From Candidatus Aenigmatarchaeota archaeon (GTDB lineage: Archaea; Aenigmatarchaeota; Aenigmatarchaeia; CG10238-14; SpSt-28): 64,000 nt of DNA. This document shows, piece after piece, positions 3,016-25,276 of the stretch. The position numbers and the translations under genes are program-made. The stretch spans positions 32,001 through 96,000 of the forward strand of contig JAWBMD010000001.1 of the NCBI GenBank assembly GCA_039000985.1. The letters run 5' to 3'. Numbering within the stretch: the first letter of the stretch is position 1; each line of letters starts with the position of its first letter. Under the pieces are notes generated by a model. The model was not told the origin of the DNA. It was given only the letters and a program-made list of their open reading frames with translations, and made no database searches.

Positions 3016-3872
3016 GAATACCACTTTTACCTTTTCCTTTAGAAAAAGCAGTAAAGTTTTCAAAGGGTATTATGTTTTTAAGCAATTATTTAATTAAATT
3101 CTTTCCAGGATTGCAGCAATCTTTAATTCAGGCTAATATAAATTTGAAGGATAGGGAATATTTATCTGTAGCTATATTTTCAAGTATTTTTTGGTTTTTG
3201 ATTTTTTTTACAATTTTTATTTCTCTTTCAAAATCTCTACTTAATTCATTTTTGGTATCATTTGCTTTACAAATAATTATTTTAATTTATATAGCATCAT
3301 TTCCAAAATATCTTGTTTCAAAAAGAAATAGAGATATAGAAAGAAATTTGCTTTTTGCTGTTAAGCATTTGCTTATTCAAATAAAAAGTGGAGTTTCTTT
3401 GTTCGACGCAATAGTTTCTGTTTCTAAAGGAAATTACGGAGAAGTATCAAAAGAATTTGAAAGATGTGCAAAAGAAATTTATTCTGGTAGAGAACAAATA
3501 TCAGCTTTAGAAGATATAACAATTAGAAATCCAAATATTTCTTTTAGAAGAGTAATTTGGCAATTAATAAATGCTATGAGAACGGGTACAGATTTAGGTA
3601 GTTCATTAGAAGTTATGGTTAATAATTTATCAAATGAGCAAAGAATAGCAATAAGAAAATATGGTTCCGAGCTAGGACCAATTGCTTTAATGTATTTAAT
3701 GACATCTATTATATTTCCAACTTTGGGAATTGTTTTCATGATAATTTTTTCTTCGTTTAGCGGGATAGCAGTTCCAGAAACCCTTTTTTATATTGTGATA
3801 TTTATGGTTTTAGTTTTTCAATTTACATTTCTAGGAATGATAAAAAGCAAAAGACCTTCTGTTGAAGTATGA
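3003..3872 (+). CDS. Pilus platform membrane protein (TadC/T2SF family)
   Basis: Multiple TM segments and a YGEVSKEF motif; directly follows the ATPase. Confidence 0.85.
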   Translation: MGKLRIPLLPFPLEKAVKFSKGIMFLSNYLIKFFPGLQQSLIQANINLKDREYLSVAIFSSIFWFLIFFTIFISLSKSLLNSFLVSFALQIIILIYIASFPKYLVSKRNRDIERNLLFAVKHLLIQIKSGVSLFDAIVSVSKGNYGEVSKEFERCAKEIYSGREQISALEDITIRNPNISFRRVIWQLINAMRTGTDLGSSLEVMVNNLSNEQRIAIRKYGSELGPIALMYLMTSIIFPTLGIVFMIIFSSFSGIAVPETLFYIVIFMVLVFQFTFLGMIKSKRPSVEV

Positions 3873-4867
3873 ATTACAAAAAAATTTTTAGAAAAATAAG
3901 GGGGTTTTTCCCAGGTTTTTTAATAAAAAAGTTTGAAGAATATCATTCTTTAGCTTCAATAGAAACAGAATTTGAAAAATTTTTTGTCTATTCATTTAAT
4001 TTTTCTTTAGCATTTTCGTTTTTCATTTTTGTTTTGTCAATAATATTTTTCAAAAGCTTGTTTTCGATAATTTTGATTCCAATAGGATTTTTACTTTCAA
4101 TGGTTTTAATATTAGTTAATTTAAATTTAATAGCTGATAAAAAAGCTAGATTTTCAGAAGAAGTGTTGCCAGATTTATTATTGTTAATGGCAAGCAATAT
4201 AAGAGCTGGTTTAACTCCAGATAAATCATTAGCTCTTTCAGCAAGGCCAGAATTTGGTATATTGGAAAGAGAAATAAAAAGTGTTGCAACAAAATCATTA
4301 GCTGGAAAACCTTTTGAGGAAGCTTTATTAGAATTAACTAAAAAAATAAAGTCTAGATTAATAGAAAGAACCATTAATTTGATTATTGAGGGAGTGAAAA
4401 AAGGTGGTGAAATAGCAAAGCTTTTAGAGCAAACAGCTAATGATATAAGGGATTTAAAAACTATGAAAAGAGAAATTTCATCACAAGTTGGTATGTATGT
4501 TATTTTTATTTTTATTGCTTCCGGAATAATTTCTCCAGCACTTTTTTCATTTTCCACCTATTTGTTAGAGACATTGCAAAAAATATCAAAAGAAGTAAGA
4601 ATAGAGGGACCAACAACAGCTTCATTGCCCCAATTCAAGTTTTTAAGATTTGGTGGAGGAATTAGTATTTCTGTAGATTTTATTAGAATTTATGCTTTAT
4701 CAATAAATTTGCTAATTTCATTTTTTGGTAGTTTGATAATTGGATTAATAAGTGAAGGTAGAGAAAAAGCTGGAGTAAAATTCATCCCATCATTATTAAC
4801 TTTAAATATTGCAGTATTTTTTGGAGCAAGTTATGCTGTTAATATAATTTCTAAGCTGTTTGTGTGA
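3869..4867 (+). CDS. Second pilus platform membrane protein (TadC/T2SF family)
   Basis: LPDLLLLMASNIRAGL...RPEFGIL and GGEIAKLLE motifs; TM segments. Confidence 0.87.
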   Translation: MNYKKIFRKIRGFFPGFLIKKFEEYHSLASIETEFEKFFVYSFNFSLAFSFFIFVLSIIFFKSLFSIILIPIGFLLSMVLILVNLNLIADKKARFSEEVLPDLLLLMASNIRAGLTPDKSLALSARPEFGILEREIKSVATKSLAGKPFEEALLELTKKIKSRLIERTINLIIEGVKKGGEIAKLLEQTANDIRDLKTMKREISSQVGMYVIFIFIASGIISPALFSFSTYLLETLQKISKEVRIEGPTTASLPQFKFLRFGGGISISVDFIRIYALSINLLISFFGSLIIGLISEGREKAGVKFIPSLLTLNIAVFFGASYAVNIISKLFV

Positions 4868-5867
4868 ATTTTCCAAAAATTTTTATTTTATAACCACAAA
4901 ACTTACAATTGTTTTTTTCATCTAAGTTCCAAGATGTTATAGAAAATCCATATCTTCCAACAACAACATTTTTACATTCCGGACAATAAGTGCTTTCATA
5001 CGGATGACCCCAAACATTTCCTATATAAACATAATTAAAGCCAAAATCCTTAGCTATTTCATAATGCTTTTCTAATGTTTTTATTGGAGTTGGTGGTAAA
5101 TCTAAAAGCTTATAATTTGGGAAAAACCTAAGGAAATGTATAGGTAAATCATTACCAAAATTATCTAACAAAAATTTAAGCATTTTTTTACAATCTTCTA
5201 TATCATCACCAATTTTTGGAATAATTAAATCAGTAATTTCAACATGCAATCCTTTTAATTTTGGTAAACAATCAAAAACTGGTTGCATTGATGGAATTAA
5301 AATATTTTTTCTGACAAATTCTAAATTTCCATTACCTTTTATATCAACTGTTATGCAATCCAAAAACTTTTTAACTTCTTTTATTGTTTCATCAGTATAA
5401 TAACCATTTGAAACGAAAATATTTATCAAACCTTTTTTTCTTGCAATTTTTCCAGTATCGCTTGCAAACTCTATAAAAATGGATGGCTCATTATATGTAT
5501 AAGCAATTCCTTGGCAATTGTTAACAATAGCTTCATTAACTATTTCTTTTGGTAGCATATCAATTCCAGCTATTTCTCTTCTTTGGCTTATATCAAAATT
5601 TTGGCAATATTTGCAAGCCCAAGAACAACCCGTTGTACCTATTGAAAGAATTTTTGATCCAGGCATGTAATGCATAACTGGTTTTTTTTCTATTGGGTCT
5701 ATATTGCAAGCTATAACTTTACCATATACAAGCAAATAGAGATTACCATTTATATTTTTTCTTACACCACAAAATCCTATTTGATTTTTAGATAATGTGC
5801 ATTTTCTTGCACATGCTTTACAAATTACCCTTCCATTAGCTTTTTCAAACAATCTAGCTTTTTTCAC
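4851..5867 (-). CDS. AmmeMemoRadiSam-system radical SAM enzyme (PflA-like)
   Basis: N-terminal CxxCxxxC...GFCGVR, DPIEKKP, CSWACKYC, YTYNEP, C-terminal CPEC...CKFC. Confidence 0.9.
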   Translation of the reverse strand: MKKARLFEKANGRVICKACARKCTLSKNQIGFCGVRKNINGNLYLLVYGKVIACNIDPIEKKPVMHYMPGSKILSIGTTGCSWACKYCQNFDISQRREIAGIDMLPKEIVNEAIVNNCQGIAYTYNEPSIFIEFASDTGKIARKKGLINIFVSNGYYTDETIKEVKKFLDCITVDIKGNGNLEFVRKNILIPSMQPVFDCLPKLKGLHVEITDLIIPKIGDDIEDCKKMLKFLLDNFGNDLPIHFLRFFPNYKLLDLPPTPIKTLEKHYEIAKDFGFNYVYIGNVWGHPYESTYCPECKNVVVGRYGFSITSWNLDEKNNCKFCGYKIKIFGKFTQTA

Positions 5868-6631
5868 TATTTGCTAAAAAATTTTTTGATTTTTGTAAAT
5901 AAACTTTCTTTTTCTTCAAATTTTTCTCCAGCTATAAAGGAAGCTATTTTTATTATTTCTATTGCAGCTTTAGAATTTTTATTTAACAAAATTAATGGTA
6001 CTCTAGCATTTATGCTTTTTTCAACATTTTCGTCTTCAGGAATTTTACCTATTATGTTTAATCCGGTTAAAGCTCTTATTTCTTCTTCCAGCATTTCATA
6101 TTTTTTTCTTTTTACTCTGTTCAGAACTAAACCTAATGGTATTACAGAATGAGCATCTAAAATTTTCAAGCATTTTACTATATCAACTATTGAGATGAAA
6201 TTTGGGTTTGATATAAAAATAGCTTCCTCGCTACATAAAATGCTAAGCATACCTTCTCTACCAAATCCTGGAGCAGAGTCAATAATTACAAAATCTCTTG
6301 TTGAAAAATTTTCTTTTATTTTTTCTTTCAATCCATCAAAATTTACATTAACCAAATCTGATATATCCAAAGATGATGGAATGAATTCTATACCATTACC
6401 ATAGCTATATATCACATTGCTTATTGGGACTTCATTTCTAAGAAAATTGTTTAATGTATATGCATAGTTATATTTTCCAAGATATAGTGAAAGATGGGAT
6501 GTTGTTATGTTTAAATCAATCAAAACTACTCTTTTTTTAAAAAATAATGATAAAGCTATTGCAAGATTTGCTGTGAAAACAGTTTTTCCAACACCACCTT
6601 TGCCAGATAATACAGATATTATCCTCACCAT
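5867..6631 (-). CDS. MinD/ParA-family ATPase
   Basis: Deviant Walker A SGKGGVGKT, IIDSAPG, IPED; C-terminal amphipathic LFTKIKKFF. Confidence 0.9.
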   Translation of the reverse strand: MVRIISVLSGKGGVGKTVFTANLAIALSLFFKKRVVLIDLNITTSHLSLYLGKYNYAYTLNNFLRNEVPISNVIYSYGNGIEFIPSSLDISDLVNVNFDGLKEKIKENFSTRDFVIIDSAPGFGREGMLSILCSEEAIFISNPNFISIVDIVKCLKILDAHSVIPLGLVLNRVKRKKYEMLEEEIRALTGLNIIGKIPEDENVEKSINARVPLILLNKNSKAAIEIIKIASFIAGEKFEEKESLFTKIKKFFSK

Positions 6632-6922
6632 CTATAAATTCTTTATGATTCCTTTATTTTTTAACCAAAAAAATTCTGTTGGGCTATACTTATGTATTAT
6701 ATCTCCTTTCTTATCTCCACCAATTTTCCATTTTTTTACTAAAATTAAATCACCCCTACTTACCCAAATTCTTTTCCTAATTCTTCCAGTTAATCTACAT
6801 ATTCTCACTTTTCCATCTTCACATTTAACAGAAAATCTGTCCCCACCTAAAGCTTCGTCTATTATTCCAAAAACTTCATCCTCATTTTCAGGCAATCTAA
6901 CTCTTATTACTTCTTCTCCCAT
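6632..6922 (-). CDS. eif1a: Translation initiation factor aIF1A
   Basis: RVRLP...LGG...CEDGKVR...GRIRKRIW..GDLILV. Confidence 0.93.
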   Translation of the reverse strand: MGEEVIRVRLPENEDEVFGIIDEALGGDRFSVKCEDGKVRICRLTGRIRKRIWVSRGDLILVKKWKIGGDKKGDIIHKYSPTEFFWLKNKGIIKNL

Positions 6923-6968
6923 AATAAGAAGTTCCTTAATAATTTTTTATTTTTTCCACAATTAAATT

Positions 6969-7316
6969 ATGGAGAAATTTAAACAAGTTATTATTGTAAG
7001 AAAAGATTTAAAAACGAGTAAAGGAAAACTAGCAGTTCAATGCTGTCATGCTTGTATAGGTGCTTTAAAGCAAGTGGAAGAAAAAGTTATCGAGGAATGG
7101 GAAAAAGAAGGAGCAAAAAAAGTTATTTTAAAAGTTAAGGATTTAAATGAATTAGAAAAAATAGAAAAAGAGCTAAAGAAAAACAAAATAAATTATTTTT
7201 TGGTTATAGATGCCGGTAAAACTCAGCTAAAGAAAGGAACAATAACTTGCATAGGTATTGGTCCAATAGAAAGTAAAAAAATAGATAAAATAACAGGAAA
7301 ACTAAAGCTACTTTGA
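6969..7316 (+). CDS. pth2: Peptidyl-tRNA hydrolase Pth2
   Basis: KQVIIVRKDL, GKLAVQCCHA, DAGKTQ, GIGP, ITGKLKLL. Confidence 0.95.
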   Translation: MEKFKQVIIVRKDLKTSKGKLAVQCCHACIGALKQVEEKVIEEWEKEGAKKVILKVKDLNELEKIEKELKKNKINYFLVIDAGKTQLKKGTITCIGIGPIESKKIDKITGKLKLL

Positions 7317-9263
7317 ATTTATATCAATTCTTGTTGATATTGTGATATCAGCTTTACACGCTATTGGTTTTGGAATATCTGTGCCAGTTGGAGATATTTG
7401 AATACATTTATTATATTTGTATTTTTCACATTCCTTTGTAATAATATTAGTCTTTATACATGGACAGTTTTCGTCTATTGTTTTTTCATCTACGTTAACT
7501 ATTTCACCACTTGGAAGTTTACATGTTATTTTGCTTATGAAATTTTCATCTTTATCTTCTATACTTATATTAAGAAAAATATTTTCTCTTGTTATTATTT
7601 CTTTTCTCAAATAAACACTACAACCATCTTTGCATTTTTCTTCATAATAGTTTGCTATAAATGGAAAATTTTCTTTGTAGGAAATTACATTTTCACATTT
7701 ATTATTGCTAAAGCAATCTTCATTGTTGTTTATACAAGTTTGTTCTTTTTTGCTACAAATAGAAAAGTACCAATTTTCTGGTATTACTGCACAATCATAA
7801 TGAATCGTATCTACATATATACTATCTCCATCATTCTCTAAAACTACATCATATATTGCATTAACTAAAAATGTTAATGTTTTTTGTTCTTTTTCTCCTA
7901 CATCAACATTAGAAATATCTAAAACACAATCTATAAAATAGTCTTTACCCCTTTCTAAATATATTTTTCGAGGTAATTCTCCACCTCCAGAAAGATCGAA
8001 AGGTTTGCAATTAAATATTCTCAATTTTTCGCTTCCTATTCCAAGTGTTCTTAAAGATACTTTTGATATGTAAATATCTCCCCTACCTTTATTAGCAAAA
8101 CCTATTGTTAGTGGAACTATTTCATCTATTCCTTTTATTAAAGTTTTCTCTATTGCCTTTACACCAATTGCAAGAGGACCTGGAGTGCTAGTTGATTCAA
8201 ATGCAGTTGGTCTTTGTTTAAAATCTTTTCCTATTATATTTACAGAGACAAATCCAGTTGTGTTATAGGAATATCTAAATTTATATTTCCACTTAAGAGG
8301 GCTTTTACATGTAGAGTCAAATCTAAATATATATTCTTTTGGTAGTTGGTCTATTTCTAAATTTTCAAGCTTACATTCATACAATCTACCCTCTTCCTCT
8401 TCTTTATATTCACATTTTGTTCCAAATGCTGTTGTAAATAGAAAATCATTTGAGTGTGCTGATAAATAAACATTTTTTGCTGGAGGGACTATATCACAAA
8501 TTTTTTGACCAGCTACTTTTATACAATATTCTCTATCACCACCAGCTTTTATATTTATTGATATAGAACCAATAGAATAGGGAATTATATTTTGTCTCTG
8601 AACTTTAGTTTCTAATAAAAAACAATCTACACAGCCCAGTTTTATCGTTTCTACTTTTCTACAAACTACTTCTCTACAATATTTTCCTATACCGCCAGCA
8701 CTATACCAAACATCAGGACTTATAAAATTTGTTATTATGCAGGAAGCCATGCAAAAATTATCACTTATTTTTCCAATACCGGGTATTCTCATTTTTAATA
8801 TGTCTGTTATGTTCTGAAAAAGGAGAAAAGCAGCAATAATGATTAGAATTATAAATATAAAAGAAAATATAGGACGTGAACTAGGAAATTTATTATACAA
8901 AAACATAAAGGCTATAATAATTCCAATTAAAGCAATTATTATAAGGACCAGTGTCCAAATATTAAAAAACAAACCTCTTAGGAATGCGATAATGGAAATT
9001 AATATGATTAAAACTATTGGCAAAGCTAATATTTTGGAAGATGTTAATGCTGGTTGTTTTGATAAAAACTTTTCTTTAAATTCTGAAAATTCCTTAGGTT
9101 TTTCTTCAGCCATGCTTTTAGCCTTATTGAAATGATCTTCACATAAGAATCCAAAAGGAGTAGGTTTACCGGGTTTTTTACAAGCAGGCCAAACACATTT
9201 TACACTAATCTTTTCTTCAATTTTCTTTCCCCACTCTTTAAGCTTTTTACCTATTTTTACCAT
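7308..9263 (-). CDS. Hypothetical membrane-anchored protein with a large Cys-rich extracellular region
   Basis: 651-aa ORF with three hydrophobic segments near the N-terminus, then a beta-rich, Cys-rich region. Confidence 0.7.
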   Translation of the reverse strand: MVKIGKKLKEWGKKIEEKISVKCVWPACKKPGKPTPFGFLCEDHFNKAKSMAEEKPKEFSEFKEKFLSKQPALTSSKILALPIVLIILISIIAFLRGLFFNIWTLVLIIIALIGIIIAFMFLYNKFPSSRPIFSFIFIILIIIAAFLLFQNITDILKMRIPGIGKISDNFCMASCIITNFISPDVWYSAGGIGKYCREVVCRKVETIKLGCVDCFLLETKVQRQNIIPYSIGSISINIKAGGDREYCIKVAGQKICDIVPPAKNVYLSAHSNDFLFTTAFGTKCEYKEEEEGRLYECKLENLEIDQLPKEYIFRFDSTCKSPLKWKYKFRYSYNTTGFVSVNIIGKDFKQRPTAFESTSTPGPLAIGVKAIEKTLIKGIDEIVPLTIGFANKGRGDIYISKVSLRTLGIGSEKLRIFNCKPFDLSGGGELPRKIYLERGKDYFIDCVLDISNVDVGEKEQKTLTFLVNAIYDVVLENDGDSIYVDTIHYDCAVIPENWYFSICSKKEQTCINNNEDCFSNNKCENVISYKENFPFIANYYEEKCKDGCSVYLRKEIITRENIFLNISIEDKDENFISKITCKLPSGEIVNVDEKTIDENCPCIKTNIITKECEKYKYNKCIQISPTGTDIPKPIACKADITISTRIDINSK

Positions 9264-20299: not shown

Positions 20300-20998
20300 A
20301 TGAAGATAAAAAAGTTACATTCAGATAATGAAAAAATGGTGTTTTTAGTAGATGGAATAGATTATTCTTTTGCAAATGGTTTAAGGAGGATTTTTATGAA
20401 CATGGTACCAACTTTGGCTATAGAATATGTTGATTTTATAGAGAATGACTCTGTTATTAACGATGAGGTGCTTGCTCATAGGTTAGGGTTAATTCCATTA
20501 ACTTTTGAGAAAAATCTTTTGGTAATGAGAGAAGATTGTAGTTGTAAAGGTAAAGGATGTAGCAATTGCATGGTTGAGTTAAGAATAAAAAAGGAAGGTC
20601 CTTGTACTGTTTATTCGAGAGATTTAATATCTTCAGAATCATCTGTAAAACCATTGTATGATAATATAATTATATGTAGATTAGCTTCTGGTATGAAGCT
20701 TGAGCTAATTGCATATGCTTTTTTGGGAATTGGAGAAGAAAGTCCAAAATGGCAAGCATCTTTAGCTACATATGTTAATGTTGTTAAAGAACAAAAAGGC
20801 AAAACAAAGAAATGCTGGACACAAGATTATGGTATTTATTGTGTTGAATGTTTCGAAGATTTAAAAGATATTGAGGTAGAAAAGGATAAGTTTTTGTTTT
20901 ATGTTGAAAGTGTTTCTGGTTTAACTACTGAAAGAGTTGTTGAAGAAGGTTTAGAGTTTGCCAAAAAATATTTAGGAAAAGTTAAAAAAGTTTTATGA
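20300..20998 (+). CDS. rpo3: RNA polymerase subunit Rpo3 (D)
   Basis: ANGLRR, VPTLAIE.V...NDS...DEVLAHRLGLIPL. Confidence 0.95.
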   Translation: MKIKKLHSDNEKMVFLVDGIDYSFANGLRRIFMNMVPTLAIEYVDFIENDSVINDEVLAHRLGLIPLTFEKNLLVMREDCSCKGKGCSNCMVELRIKKEGPCTVYSRDLISSESSVKPLYDNIIICRLASGMKLELIAYAFLGIGEESPKWQASLATYVNVVKEQKGKTKKCWTQDYGIYCVECFEDLKDIEVEKDKFLFYVESVSGLTTERVVEEGLEFAKKYLGKVKKVL

Positions 20999-21486
20999 AA
21001 AAAATATTAGCAATTTCTGATTCACATGTAAATAATTTATCTCAGCTTCCTGTTGAGCTAGTTCAAATTTTTAAAGATTTTGATTTTATTGTTCATTGTG
21101 GAGATTTTACTGGCATAAAAATTGTTCAAGAATTAAAAGAGTTTAAAAATTTTTTTGGTGTTGTTGGAAATGTAGATGATTTTGAAATATCTAAAATTTT
21201 AGATAAAAAAGTTGTTTTTGATATAAATGGCTTTAAAATAGGAATTATACATCCTTATGAAGGTGGACCACCAATAAATATTAAAACAAGGATTTTAAAA
21301 AGTTTTGGTAATGAAAAACTTGATTTAATTATATTTGGACATACTCATTTTGCAGAAATATCAGAATTCAATTCAGTTAAATTTGTTAATCCCGGTAGTT
21401 GTACAGGAAAATTACCAGCTTTGTTTAAAAGTTATGCTATAATAGAAATAGATAATGAAATTAAAGCTAGAATTGTAAGGTATTGA
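20995..21486 (+). CDS. YfcE/Vps29-like metallophosphoesterase
   Basis: SDSH, HCGD, GNVD, GHTH, NPGS. Confidence 0.9.
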   Translation: MKKILAISDSHVNNLSQLPVELVQIFKDFDFIVHCGDFTGIKIVQELKEFKNFFGVVGNVDDFEISKILDKKVVFDINGFKIGIIHPYEGGPPINIKTRILKSFGNEKLDLIIFGHTHFAEISEFNSVKFVNPGSCTGKLPALFKSYAIIEIDNEIKARIVRY

Positions 21487-24088
21487 AAATAACTTTTTTT
21501 GATAAAGTGTTGTTATAAGAGAAATATAAATCTCCATCACAATAAACACATCTGCAAGATAATGGTATTGTTTGATATTCTTTCTCACATTTTTTACAAA
21601 CTATTTTATCAAAGCTTTCTAAAAATTCCTTAACTTCTTTTTTATTATTAATTATTTTTGCTATTTCAAGTTTTGTTTGTTTACCAATTTCTTTTATATC
21701 ACTAACATTTGCTCCTATTGCTTCCATTATTCTTTCTATTGGTGGAAATAGTTGGCTTTTTATGTAATAATCATAATCTATTTCCAATCCTTCTCTTTTA
21801 ACAAAATTAGGATCTTCAGCTCTTTTTGATAAAATTTCACCACCTTTTACTATAACAAAGCTTATTCTATCACCAACTCCAGGTATTCTTTTTTCTCCCC
21901 TCTCTTTCATTTTTTTAATTAGTTCTATATGTGGCTGAATTCCTTTATAATTTGTTTTAGAAATACCTTTTGTTATTAATAGTTTTTCTAAAGGTATTTT
22001 ACCTTCTCTAAGATTTTTAACAATTTCTTTAAATCTGTTAACAGCTTTTTCAACATTCTTTTCTTTTAATATAGTGCTAACAACTTCTTCTAAAGTATCT
22101 GTAACTAAATCACACCAATCTCTTCTAACTGTTTCTATTCCTTTCATAACAATTTTTTCATTACCATTTTCATCAACAGAAAGAGCAGCATATCTTTTTT
22201 TAGTTAAAATTATAATGCTTTTGAAAATACTCTCTATTTTCATTTTCAAATTCTCATATTTTATATTTACAATATTCTCCAATTCTTTAGCTTTTTCAAA
22301 AGCTAACTTTATATCATCTGTATCAAGTTTAACCATTATAGAATCTGTATCTCCATAAATAACTTTATAATTTGTTTCTTTCTCGATAGTTTCCTTCATT
22401 TCTGTTATTAATTTTCTACCGTTCGCTGTTATTGAGTTAGCTATTTCCAATATATACAATCTACCAGAAACAAAACCCGTATAACCATAAAATGCATTTG
22501 CTATTCTTTTAAAAGCCTCTTGCATAGCATCCAGTTTTTCTCTCATAATTTCGTCTTTTTCATTTTTTAGCGAGCTCTTTATTTTATTTCTTTCTTCAAT
22601 CATCCTTTTTAAAATTTTTGGATATATACCCTCTCTAACATTTTTAGAAACAAATTTTGGAATTCCATTTTCTATAATAAGTGTTGTTGGACAAATGTTA
22701 AAACTTATTATTATGTTTGGGTACATGCTTGCAAAATCTAAGTAAACTATGCATTTATCATGAAAACCTATTTGTGGTTGCAACACTAATCCACCTTCCA
22801 ATCCCTTAGCTTCTTTTTCCTTTTCTCTTTCCAATTTAATTTTTTCTGATGGTTTGTTTGGCATTACAAAATCACGTTTATTAAATTCTTTAAGCAAAAG
22901 GAATTCTATTTTTGAGGCTTCTCCACCATCAAGTATATCTTGTAACAATAAACCACTAACTTTGCTTAGAGCAATATATTTATCAAGCATTTTATATTTC
23001 AAAAACAGTTTAAAGGCAAGTTCTGAATCTTTTCTAGCATATTCTATTACTTTTTTTGGATTTTCATACCAGTATTTTTCTATTTCGCTATGAGATATAT
23101 CTATTTTGCTTTCATTTAACAAAAAGTTTGCCACACTGTTTAAGTCAAATCTTTTCAATTTTTTGAAAAAACCAACTTTTACTAATTCTTTTATAATTTT
23201 ATAGCTATCTACAATAAATCTACCAACTATATGATTTTTATATTTGTTTTCTCTTAGTTTTTTTGATGAAGCTGATTTTTCTTCTGCTCTTCCCATTATC
23301 GGCTTTATATTTAGTTTTTTCATTCTGTTTATTAGATATGGTAAATCGAAATCATTTATGTTATACCCAACTATAAAATCTGGATCAAAATCTTTAACTA
23401 TTTCTAAAAACTTCTTTAGCATTTCTTTTTCATCTTCAAAACAAATTACATCAACTTCACTATTTTTAATAATTTTTGAAGTCAAAATTAGACTATTTTT
23501 TTCGTTGTAGTGTGGATAAAAGAAAAGGGAAATAATTATTATTTCCCCTTCTGCAGTTTCTACATTTGGACTACCTATACATTCTATATCTATTGTCAAG
23601 AATTTAAAATTAGCATTTTTTTCTTCATTCAAGTTCTCAAAGCTTTCCGCTTCATATGCTTCATTTACATATAAAGAGTTCGAATTTATTCTTTTACCTT
23701 TAATTTTTATCCAATTCATTCCATTAATGTTGAAATCTGCTGCAAATCTATATTTAAACAATATATCAGCTTCAAATGTTTCCACCTTTATTTTATTTCT
23801 AATATTCGGTACATCTGCCGGATTTGATAAATAAACTTTCATAAGCTTTGTTTTATTTTCATTAAATCCTATTGGTAAAAATTTTTCTACAATTTCAGAT
23901 TTTATAAAATGAGGTTCCTTTAAAATTTCTTCGTTTAAAGAATTTATGTAAAAATATGGATAAAATTTTTTGTATATTACACAAACTGTTTTACCATCTT
24001 CTTTTTTTCCAAATATTCTTATTATTGGTACTTTTTCGCTTTTAGAATAAACATAATCTATGTCAAATACTTGAAAGGATACTTCCAC
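21467..24088 (-). CDS. polB: B-family DNA polymerase, eukaryote (alpha/delta)-like, with a C-terminal Zn finger
   Basis: Exonuclease motifs DIE, GYNINDFD, YARKD; polymerase motifs DFASMYP, KRIANAFYG, YGDTDS, KKRYA, KGIETVRRDW; C-terminal CKKC-x12-CVYC. Confidence 0.95.
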   Translation of the reverse strand: MEVSFQVFDIDYVYSKSEKVPIIRIFGKKEDGKTVCVIYKKFYPYFYINSLNEEILKEPHFIKSEIVEKFLPIGFNENKTKLMKVYLSNPADVPNIRNKIKVETFEADILFKYRFAADFNINGMNWIKIKGKRINSNSLYVNEAYEAESFENLNEEKNANFKFLTIDIECIGSPNVETAEGEIIIISLFFYPHYNEKNSLILTSKIIKNSEVDVICFEDEKEMLKKFLEIVKDFDPDFIVGYNINDFDLPYLINRMKKLNIKPIMGRAEEKSASSKKLRENKYKNHIVGRFIVDSYKIIKELVKVGFFKKLKRFDLNSVANFLLNESKIDISHSEIEKYWYENPKKVIEYARKDSELAFKLFLKYKMLDKYIALSKVSGLLLQDILDGGEASKIEFLLLKEFNKRDFVMPNKPSEKIKLEREKEKEAKGLEGGLVLQPQIGFHDKCIVYLDFASMYPNIIISFNICPTTLIIENGIPKFVSKNVREGIYPKILKRMIEERNKIKSSLKNEKDEIMREKLDAMQEAFKRIANAFYGYTGFVSGRLYILEIANSITANGRKLITEMKETIEKETNYKVIYGDTDSIMVKLDTDDIKLAFEKAKELENIVNIKYENLKMKIESIFKSIIILTKKRYAALSVDENGNEKIVMKGIETVRRDWCDLVTDTLEEVVSTILKEKNVEKAVNRFKEIVKNLREGKIPLEKLLITKGISKTNYKGIQPHIELIKKMKERGEKRIPGVGDRISFVIVKGGEILSKRAEDPNFVKREGLEIDYDYYIKSQLFPPIERIMEAIGANVSDIKEIGKQTKLEIAKIINNKKEVKEFLESFDKIVCKKCEKEYQTIPLSCRCVYCDGDLYFSYNNTLSKKVIFNTLQF

Positions 24089-24102
24089 AATTTCTTTATT
24101 AT

Positions 24103-25062
24103 TTAGAAATTTTTATATATTTCTCTACTTTTTAAGTTTATATCAACAAATGTATTTTCTTTTATATATAATATTGTTGTACCCTTGTAGTTCAGGCAAA
24201 TATTGTCAAATTTATTACCATAAACAACTATAAAATCTGGAATTTCTTTAAGCAAAAGAGCATTTGATGGTAGTTTTTTTATTAATGGGTTTAAATTTCT
24301 TTTTTTAACTAAACTTATTATCTCTTTTTCGAAATCATTTTCTATCTTTGTTAAATTTTCATTAACTATTAAAACTAAAAAATCATTTTCTATTTTTGCC
24401 TTTAGCATATTGTTAAAAACTATTGTGTTTTTCCAAATTTTTTTATTATTAAAAAAGTAATAATTGTTGCTTTTTGGTGTTTCATTACATTCATAACCAA
24501 ATCTAACAAAAACATCTCTACTAGCTTTTTTAGATTTGGCTAAAGGTATATCCGGATAAACTACTTTTTTTATTTTATAATCCTTTACAATAAAGCCAAA
24601 AACATCAGATTCAAATATTTTTTCATCAATATCTAATTGTAATTTTATTTTATCTGTATAATCTTCAACTAATATATTATCATTATTAACTTCAATTACA
24701 ATACCTATTATATTACCGCTTTTGTTCTTTTTTAAATTTGATATCGACATTACATTTACCATTTCTATCTTGCTTTTGATTAAGTTTCTTAAAAATTCAA
24801 ATCTATCAACAATTATTTTATTAATGCTTTCTATACTAATTTCATTTATACTAATATCACTTTCTATAATTTCAAATTCATTTTTTTCAAAGATTTTATT
24901 TAATAAATCTAAAGTTATGCATTTATCAGGTATTTTTTCAAATTCAATATTTTTAAACAAATCTTCTAAGCTTTCAATTCCCTTTAAATATTCTAATGCT
25001 TCGGGAGTTACAGTAAAACCTCTCAGCAAAAATTCCTTTATAATTTCATTTGTTGATAACAT
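24103..25062 (-). CDS. Inactivated PolD DP1 / eukaryotic B-subunit-like protein
   Basis: N-terminal helical motif FLLRGFTVTPEALEYL; DRFEFLR..I; OB-like IIGIV...VEDYTD...YPDIP; LVKKRNLNP...LLKEIPD. Phosphoesterase metal ligands are absent. Confidence 0.75.
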   Translation of the reverse strand: MLSTNEIIKEFLLRGFTVTPEALEYLKGIESLEDLFKNIEFEKIPDKCITLDLLNKIFEKNEFEIIESDISINEISIESINKIIVDRFEFLRNLIKSKIEMVNVMSISNLKKNKSGNIIGIVIEVNNDNILVEDYTDKIKLQLDIDEKIFESDVFGFIVKDYKIKKVVYPDIPLAKSKKASRDVFVRFGYECNETPKSNNYYFFNNKKIWKNTIVFNNMLKAKIENDFLVLIVNENLTKIENDFEKEIISLVKKRNLNPLIKKLPSNALLLKEIPDFIVVYGNKFDNICLNYKGTTILYIKENTFVDINLKSREIYKNF

Positions 25063-25276
25063 AAAGTCTTGTTTTTTTTGTTTTACTTGAATTTATTTCA
25101 AATACTTTAACTTTTCCAATAGATATTAATTCATTAATATATTTTTTCGCTGTTCCCCAATTCAAGTTACAAATTTTTGATATTTTAAGCAAAGTTAATG
25201 GATATTTTGAACTAGATAAAACTTCTAAAATTTTCTTTTGAGTTTCAAATCTTTTAGAAGGCCTTCCAACTTTCAT
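25046..25276 (-). CDS. Small winged-helix DNA-binding protein
   Basis: ILEVL...PLTLLKISKICNLNWGTAKKYINEL...GKV followed by a beta wing. Confidence 0.72.
   Translation of the reverse strand: MKVGRPSKRFETQKKILEVLSSSKYPLTLLKISKICNLNWGTAKKYINELISIGKVKVFEINSSKTKKTRLYVINK

Follow-up and report, generated by a model that had tools for sequence, protein, structure and literature searches.

A family-B DNA polymerase with a zinc-ribbon tail and an adjoining, catalytically dead DP1 homologue: a probable two-subunit enzyme in an Aenigmatarchaeota genome

Why should an archaeal family-B DNA polymerase (PolB) be encoded directly behind a gene for a broken relative of DP1, the small subunit of archaeal polymerase D (PolD)? 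The question is raised by a 64,000-nucleotide stretch of DNA from a Candidatus Aenigmatarchaeota archaeon (assembly GCA_039000985.1, contig JAWBMD010000001.1, positions 32,001 to 96,000), the whole of which is called the window here; coordinates below are its own. On its minus strand, a gene for a 319-aa protein (24103..25062, ATG start) is followed by a gene for an 873-aa PolB (21467..24088, GTG start), the stop of the first lying 14 nucleotides from the start of the second. We consider it likely that the two products form a two-subunit enzyme, in which the dead DP1 homologue is a structural subunit linking PolB to the replisome. An earlier note, made from the sequence alone, had placed a DP1-like open reading frame (ORF) 14 nucleotides before a co-oriented polB, had called the DP1 relative dead and had seen a four-Cys finger at the end of PolB; the coordinates and the junction agree with the first of these claims, and the other two were borne out by the analyses that follow.

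The small protein matches the NCBIfam DP1 model NF003118 over residues 2–183 (E 1.9e-10), and it matches neither of the Pfam families DNA_pol_E_B and Metallophos. A word-indexed protein search with the 319-aa query returned 7 proteins, the named ones being hypothetical proteins of Candidatus Aenigmarchaeota/Aenigmatarchaeota metagenome-assembled genomes (nearest named relative at 62% identity), and an exhaustive search gave 138 cluster representatives of 129–412 aa at E ≤ 0.001; the window protein is among the shortest of this family. A 15-residue match in a Babeliaceae bacterium, obtained when genome contigs were searched with the single query, was discarded as spurious and not a true relative. 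Both searches fed a family alignment of 73 rows (the query and 72 relatives, with most fragments and weaker hits left out). Its profile finds DP1 chains at E 1.7e-36 (6knb_A) to 1.6e-31 over three stretches, namely the N-terminal domain, the OB fold and the C-terminal half of the phosphoesterase (PDE) domain, together with subunit 2 of Pol delta (6e-4) and of Pol epsilon (1.3e-3).

The AlphaFold2 model of the protein has a pLDDT of 93.1 and a pTM of 0.84. Foldseek listed about 50 matches at E ≤ 0.001, each of which is either DP1 or the B subunit of a eukaryotic polymerase (Pol alpha, delta, epsilon or zeta). Structural alignment with VIA-align gives Z 20.8 against DP1 5ihe_A (266 residues aligned, root-mean-square deviation 3.9) and Z 18–19.6 against p50, p59, p70 and Pol31, the value for human p50 (3e0j_A, Z 19.6) counting as a tie with that for 5ihe_A. 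The 319-aa protein is a true DP1/B-subunit homologue, with an OB fold followed by a calcineurin-like phosphoesterase fold.

Three regions can be told apart in it, all encoded on the minus strand. Residues 1–58 (24889..25062) form a four-helix domain resembling the DP1 N-terminal domain (DP1N), with helices at 4–13, 20–26, 33–41 and 51–58 in the model; the sequence scores for this domain are weak, both for Pfam Dpoe2NT (E 0.074, sub-threshold) and for the profile against the DP1 N-terminal domain 2kxe_A (E 0.027). The OB-fold region (residues ~100–170) and its preceding helix (77–96), at 24553..24765, make up the predicted docking surface. This is the stretch that the 73-row profile matches best to DP1, and S106, E133, D134, T136, P170, D171 and P173 are conserved in it family-wide; four residues of the protein (S106, D134, R255 and P275) are invariant across all rows. 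The remnant PDE core (residues 181–319; 24106..24522) matches minimal phosphoesterases such as COG0622 and Vps29 when aligned alone (Z 9–10; 3ck2 Z 9.8, Vps29 Z about 9).

As a reference for the catalytic motifs we used the only canonical DP1 seen in the order, from locus L046 (contig C64 of genome G058). Where the canonical protein has SDIH at motif I, the window protein has YECN; motifs II (GD) and III (GNHD) are deleted; the conserved His of motif IV is Asn; and motif V reads GNKF instead of GHIH. None of the five motifs of active DP1 (DxH, GD, GNH[DE], H, GHxH) is intact, and about a third of the PDE domain is lost. Judged on its sequence, the protein is confirmed as catalytically dead, and with every phosphoesterase motif and so much of the domain gone it cannot be a nuclease.

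The loss is not complete throughout the family. Nine of the 73 members (353–394 aa) retain motif I as D-x-H, motif II as G-D and motif V as H-x-H, the last being GHxH in eight and AHFH in one. Four of the nine (P0005, P0014, P0054 and P0075) were aligned with the canonical DP1; all four keep the motif IV His, and at motif III the first three read GE[IK]D rather than GNHD, P0075 aligning poorly there. Members of ~300–340 aa, those of the window's family among them, retain none of the five motifs and lack the segment carrying motifs II and III. The phosphoesterase domain thus decays in graded steps across the order, with the window protein at the far end. We found no published account of this graded decay. 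The series, from four of five motifs at ~390 aa to none at ~320 aa, could show how catalysis was lost stepwise in B subunits of the eukaryotic type.

The identity of the partner is unambiguous (Pfam DNA_pol_B E 2.3e-115, DNA_pol_B_exo1 E 1.2e-37). We aligned the window PolB with 19 PolBs adjoining DP1-like genes in related genomes; these 19 start at the same aligned position, which backs the GTG start. The exonuclease motifs (D167-I-E169, N243/F247/D248, Y350/D354) and the polymerase motifs (D451..Y456, K527/N531/Y534/G535, Y578/D580/T581/D582) are invariant in all 20 proteins, and because of this the window PolB should both polymerise and proofread in the 3′–5′ direction. Among solved structures it matches the Thermococcales PolB (1.9e-98), the Pol delta catalytic subunit (1.1e-87) and Pol alpha (about 1e-77) roughly equally, and some of the Pol delta alignments reach residue 856, within its C-terminal tail.

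This tail (residues 796–873; 21470..21703, minus strand) consists of a short linker, a Cys4 zinc ribbon and a terminal strand, and is the proposed docking module. The metal-binding motif, CKKC-x10-C-x-CVYC (residues 831–850; 21539..21598, minus strand), follows the thumb after a linker of ~30 residues. Its cysteines C831, C834, C847 and C850 are invariant in the 20 aligned PolBs, forming one CxxC-x12-CxxC module, and P842, G852 and F856 are nearly so; C845 is an extra cysteine found only in the window PolB and a same-genus relative. The tail is present in all 19 complete PolBs that adjoin a DP1-like gene, the twentieth being cut by a contig end. Most relatives also appear to carry, between thumb and zinc ribbon, a segment G-[RK]-Q-x-x-L-x-x-[hydrophobic pair] (PolB ~802–812, window ~21653–21685). 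It lies at the site of the PCNA-binding PIP box in archaeal PolBs. The window version, QTKLEIAK, is without the aromatic pair.

In PolD, the loop KxRRxP of the third zinc module of DP2 (Zn-III) docks on DP1, in an electronegative groove that separates its OB domain from its PDE domain (PMC6355029). The loop between the two Cys pairs of the PolB tail corresponds to it in position, and R-R occurs there in 12 of the 20 tails, mostly as K-x-[YF]-R-R-x-P or a close variant. The window PolB itself has K-E-Y-Q-T-I-P, and the putative likeness of these tails to DP2 Zn-III is drawn from the loop motif. We observed that R-R is replaced in all four examined members of the window's family (QT, KT, FS and FS; residues 836–842, ~21563–21583). 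In these four lineages the small subunit is also at its most reduced; since they are closely related, they do not count as independent evidence of co-variation.

Would two such proteins bind each other? The earlier note had proposed a heterodimer of a zinc-finger PolB and a B subunit. We ran a controlled complex prediction of the small subunit with PolB residues 796–873, using our own alignments as input, and obtained a score of 0.77, the best of three controls reaching 0.02. The mark applied is reached by 116 of 157 solved complexes and by 2 of 215 mismatched pairs, counts that hold only roughly for runs with our own alignments. At least 82% of contacts recur between runs, and the partner pLDDT is no lower than 62. 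Predicted contacts involve PolB residues 826, 829, 838–843, 845, 848, 853–856 and 864–869 and small-subunit residues 72–88, 121–135, 138, 151–152 and 260–262; they include the zinc-finger loop 838–843, the counterpart of the PolD loop that docks in the OB/PDE groove. The model supports likeness to the known docking mode. The docking part of the proposed heterodimer is thereby upheld as a prediction, and binding by the window copy itself stays at that level.

The gene pair is conserved well beyond the window, as a check of synteny suggested by the earlier note made clear. PolB follows immediately after the small-subunit gene, in the same orientation, in all 20 loci (the window's own included), and gaps measured from the first start codon called are 3–81 nucleotides in 20 longer regions from other genomes. 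With the 73-row profile, the small subunit was found in 96 of 101 sampled genomes of the order and in 32 of its 33 high-quality genomes, mostly as a single copy; the search with a single protein had found it in only 44 of the 101, an under-count relative to the family profile. One genome of 95% completeness (G001) has the pair of winged-helix and DP1-like genes twice, on contigs C2 and C21, which could be a duplication or a strain mix. In another locus an apparent small subunit of 488 aa (L042) looked like a fusion of the winged-helix and DP1-like proteins; this was rejected, the winged helix being in a different frame and the length stemming from ORF calling at the first start.

The partner of DP1 in PolD was, in the same sample, hardly ever found: DP2 (Pfam PolC_DP2_N) was detected in 1 of the 101 genomes. 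The host genome of the window (843 kb in 26 contigs, 89.7% complete) yielded neither DP2 (PF03833; the control was positive in three known PolD-bearing genomes) nor an intact DP1 PDE domain (DNA_pol_E_B), so that the search for a separate, intact DP1/DP2 pair proposed in the earlier note found none at this completeness. The genome G058 that supplied the canonical DP1 stands apart. Its contig C64 (3058 bp) carries that DP1, with all five motifs, and DP2 directly after it, and another of its contigs carries the winged-helix, dead-DP1 and PolB genes as well; it is either a contaminated bin or a genome with both systems.

Taking these observations together, we hypothesize that the locus encodes an Aenigmatarchaeota-type two-subunit family-B DNA polymerase. 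The 873-aa PolB would carry out synthesis and proofreading; its Cys4 zinc ribbon, a putative counterpart of DP2 Zn-III, is predicted to dock on the helix/OB face and in the OB/PDE cleft of the 319-aa protein, and the latter would most likely serve as a structural B subunit. In PolD, DP1N binds Gins51C and thereby links the polymerase to CMG, as Dpb2N does for Pol epsilon (PMC9023282). Genes for GINS, on contig C4, and for PCNA are present in the host genome. Since the DP1N-like four-helix domain has been kept, the likely job of the small subunit is to connect PolB to the replisome; we infer that this domain tethers PolB to GINS/CMG and that the enzyme acts as a chromosomal replicase.

Several points weigh against this interpretation. 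The DP1N assignment comes from the two weak scores given above (E 0.074 and 0.027) and four predicted helices, and the window PolB has QT where the KxRRxP docking loop carries its two basic residues. Complexes of DP1 with DP2, and of B subunits with polymerase C-terminal domains (CTDs), have already been solved, and the prediction score may reflect likeness to them; its calibration is approximate, as said. The DP2 helical bundle that contacts the PDE domain is without a clear counterpart in the ~30-residue PolB linker. The placement of the window PolB in PolB group B6 is putative. Because the genome is incomplete, and in 26 contigs, the absence of DP2 is unproven. Finally, a second PolB of 799 aa, without a Cys tail, is encoded on another contig, and either enzyme may replicate either strand. 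Directly downstream of the gene for this tail-less PolB we noticed an open-ended ORF of at least 480 aa (locus L002, contig C8, 2–1441, minus strand) with two CxxC pairs at its start and a Walker-A-like APTGCGKT, which may be a zinc-finger helicase or a reverse-gyrase-like protein.

This second polymerase is the basis of the alternative that survives best, in which the two-subunit enzyme is real and specialised (for one strand, for initiation or for repair) and the tail-less PolB does the bulk of synthesis. Both PolB genes of the host genome are full-length, with strong Pfam matches (1.0e-115 and 8.1e-71), and both eukaryotes and Thermococcales, as a rule, divide the labour among polymerases (PMC13136892). 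A specialised role sits less well with a DP1-like gene carried by nearly every sampled genome of the order and with retention of a DP1N-like domain, the part that links PolD to CMG in other archaea; moreover, the CTD-bearing PolB is read as a replacement of DP2 in PMC7544198. We regard specialisation as unlikely.

An extension of the two-subunit reading concerns a third gene. Upstream of the small-subunit gene lies one for a 76-aa winged helix-turn-helix protein (wHTH; 25046..25276, minus strand; Pfam HTH_24 E 5e-6), which overlaps the small-subunit start by 17 nucleotides and whose own start overlaps the stop of the S-adenosylmethionine (SAM) synthetase gene by 4. Its N-terminus is MKVGRP in the window and MKRGRP in relatives of 76–85 aa. 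We take this MK[RV]GRP motif to resemble an AT-hook. A wHTH gene is found upstream in 19 of the 20 fetched loci (L024–L043), and a profile of the family detects it in 70 of the 101 sampled genomes, none of them from family f5, of which 23 were sampled; for 67 of the 70 the best match is at most 100 nucleotides upstream of the small-subunit gene or overlaps it (coordinates read by hand). The family matches generic winged-helix domains only, and its fold neighbours are small transcription regulators. As a polymerase subunit of the Pol32N/p66N or Rpa2-WH kind it gained no support (best E 0.39 for the profile against the PDB, and none of the listed fold matches is to an accessory subunit of a polymerase), a null that amounts to a lack of positive support and not to exclusion. 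The protein is most likely a DNA-binding regulator of the cluster. A bolder version, in which the AT-hook-like wHTH is a dedicated polymerase partner, for example a third subunit or a factor targeting the enzyme to AT-rich DNA or origins, and completes a three-gene unit, seems rather doubtful to us. No mention of a winged helix next to the Aenigmatarchaeota polymerase was found in print, including the available portions of PMC7544198 and PMC12680538.

It may also be asked whether the 319-aa ORF is simply a relic: a decaying DP1 that neither binds PolB nor has any function, its adjacency to PolB being historical. The loss of every catalytic motif, two of them by deletion, the missing RR docking residues in the window PolB and the position of the protein among the shortest of its family are all what such a view would cite. 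Yet almost all of the 96 genomes carrying the gene have it as an open frame, the fold is predicted with confidence, S106, D134, R255 and P275 do not vary among 73 diverse members, the complex prediction passes with clean controls, and the gene is tightly packed between its 17-nucleotide overlap upstream and its 14-nucleotide gap downstream. We consider a functionless relic very improbable. Least credible of all is that the genes are part of a virus or mobile element that has integrated, and copy it instead of the chromosome, since, although the B6 PolB may derive from a mobile genetic element (PMC7544198), the neighbours are housekeeping genes (SAM synthetase, Pfam E 1e-150; methionyl-tRNA-synthetase-like and nucleoside-diphosphate-kinase-like ORFs assigned by eye from the ORF list), the composition is uniformly AT-rich (GC 0.24–0.31 throughout the window) and nearly every sampled genome of the order has the module, mostly in one copy, points that leave room for an ancient mobile origin.

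Other neighbours were considered as members of the module. A YfcE-type Metallophos_2 phosphoesterase (20995–21486, plus strand; E 1.4e-28) is convergent with PolB and overlaps its 3′ end by 20 nucleotides; it shares a fold superfamily with the DP1 PDE domain. As a detached nuclease partner it was rejected, being a neighbour in only one of the 20 loci, from a same-genus genome; the SAM synthetase was rejected likewise, lying upstream in only one of the 20.

The pair of PolB and dead DP1 is one of few archaeal systems that mirror the design of eukaryotic replicases, and published models of how Pol alpha, delta and epsilon arose make use of it. What the window contributes is a clean and compact instance in a small genome; counts for the order as a whole (the small subunit in 96 of the 101 genomes, DP2 in one); a B subunit at the extreme of reduction, left with an N-terminal domain, an OB fold and a bare phosphoesterase core; and a conserved winged-helix neighbour. 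The upstream wHTH gene and the graded decay of the PDE domain were not found in print. These data may be useful in choosing constructs for biochemistry and structure determination, and they leave the published picture unchanged.

That picture is already detailed. The architecture of PolB with a dead DP1 was published in 2020, and binding was tested by yeast two-hybrid in 2025; because PMC7544198 and PMC12680538 describe it, the finding must be regarded as known. In the first (Kazlauskas et al. 2020, PMC7544198), B6 PolBs of Aenigmarchaeota are described with either one Cys motif ('aenigma1') or two, and the lone motif is compared to DP2 Zn-III; most of the phylum lacks DP2, and inactive DP1s make up a clade named 'Aenigma_GB_GCA_002789635-like'. 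For that reference genome, its Table S4 lists a DP1 at 3687–4719 (336 aa) and a B6 PolB at 4779–7476 (887 aa), 59 nucleotides apart on one contig; the terms operon, adjacent, neighbo- and truncat- are absent from its main text. This B6-aenigma1 system with inactive DP1 has the same layout as the window and nearly the same sizes (319 and 873 aa there). A single C-terminal Cys-rich motif, an inactive DP1 and no DP2 found are all seen here, a likeness of features. Nothing essential differs, the window being at the short end and its zinc loop lacking RR.

The second source reports from AlphaFold3 and yeast two-hybrid that Aenigmatarchaeota DP1 binds the CTD-bearing PolB and not other PolBs (PMC12680538, 2025). 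The caution on novelty expressed in the earlier note was thus justified, and its remark that no biochemical characterisation was known is out of date. The same text terms the Aenigmatarchaeota CTD 'degenerate' and attributes the 'aenigma2' sequences to contamination from Baldrarchaeia. Its PolB-DP2CTD with DP1 is the same heterodimer as proposed here, and the proteins tested there come from other genomes. Baldrarchaeial PolB3 has a full DP2-type CTD, whereas the window PolB has a short linker and one zinc ribbon.

Compared with PolD, the window pair shares the layout of the small subunit (N-terminal helical domain, OB, PDE) and, by prediction, the placement of a zinc module at the OB/PDE groove. 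It differs in that no DP2 double-psi-barrel subunit was found in the window's genome, the small subunit has none of the five nuclease motifs, and proofreading would fall to the exonuclease domain of PolB. To our knowledge, PBP1 and PBP2 of Saccharolobus are not DP1 homologues, and PolB1 of the same enzyme is without a Cys4 tail. The PolB1–PBP1–PBP2 complex is also an archaeal PolB with small accessory subunits (PMC7923795).

The resemblance to eukaryotic Pol alpha, delta, epsilon and zeta is one of design: a PolB core, a Cys-rich C-terminal module and an inactivated DP1 homologue. The eukaryotic CTD comprises CysA and CysB on a helical scaffold, whereas the window PolB has one Cys4 module after a ~30-residue linker, lacks a long helical CTD and has no motif for an Fe–S cluster; the window PDE is much smaller than that of eukaryotic B subunits, and third or fourth subunits were not identified. 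As we read it, the window enzyme would function in the manner of the eukaryotic design, without belonging to the eukaryotic replicative PolBs.

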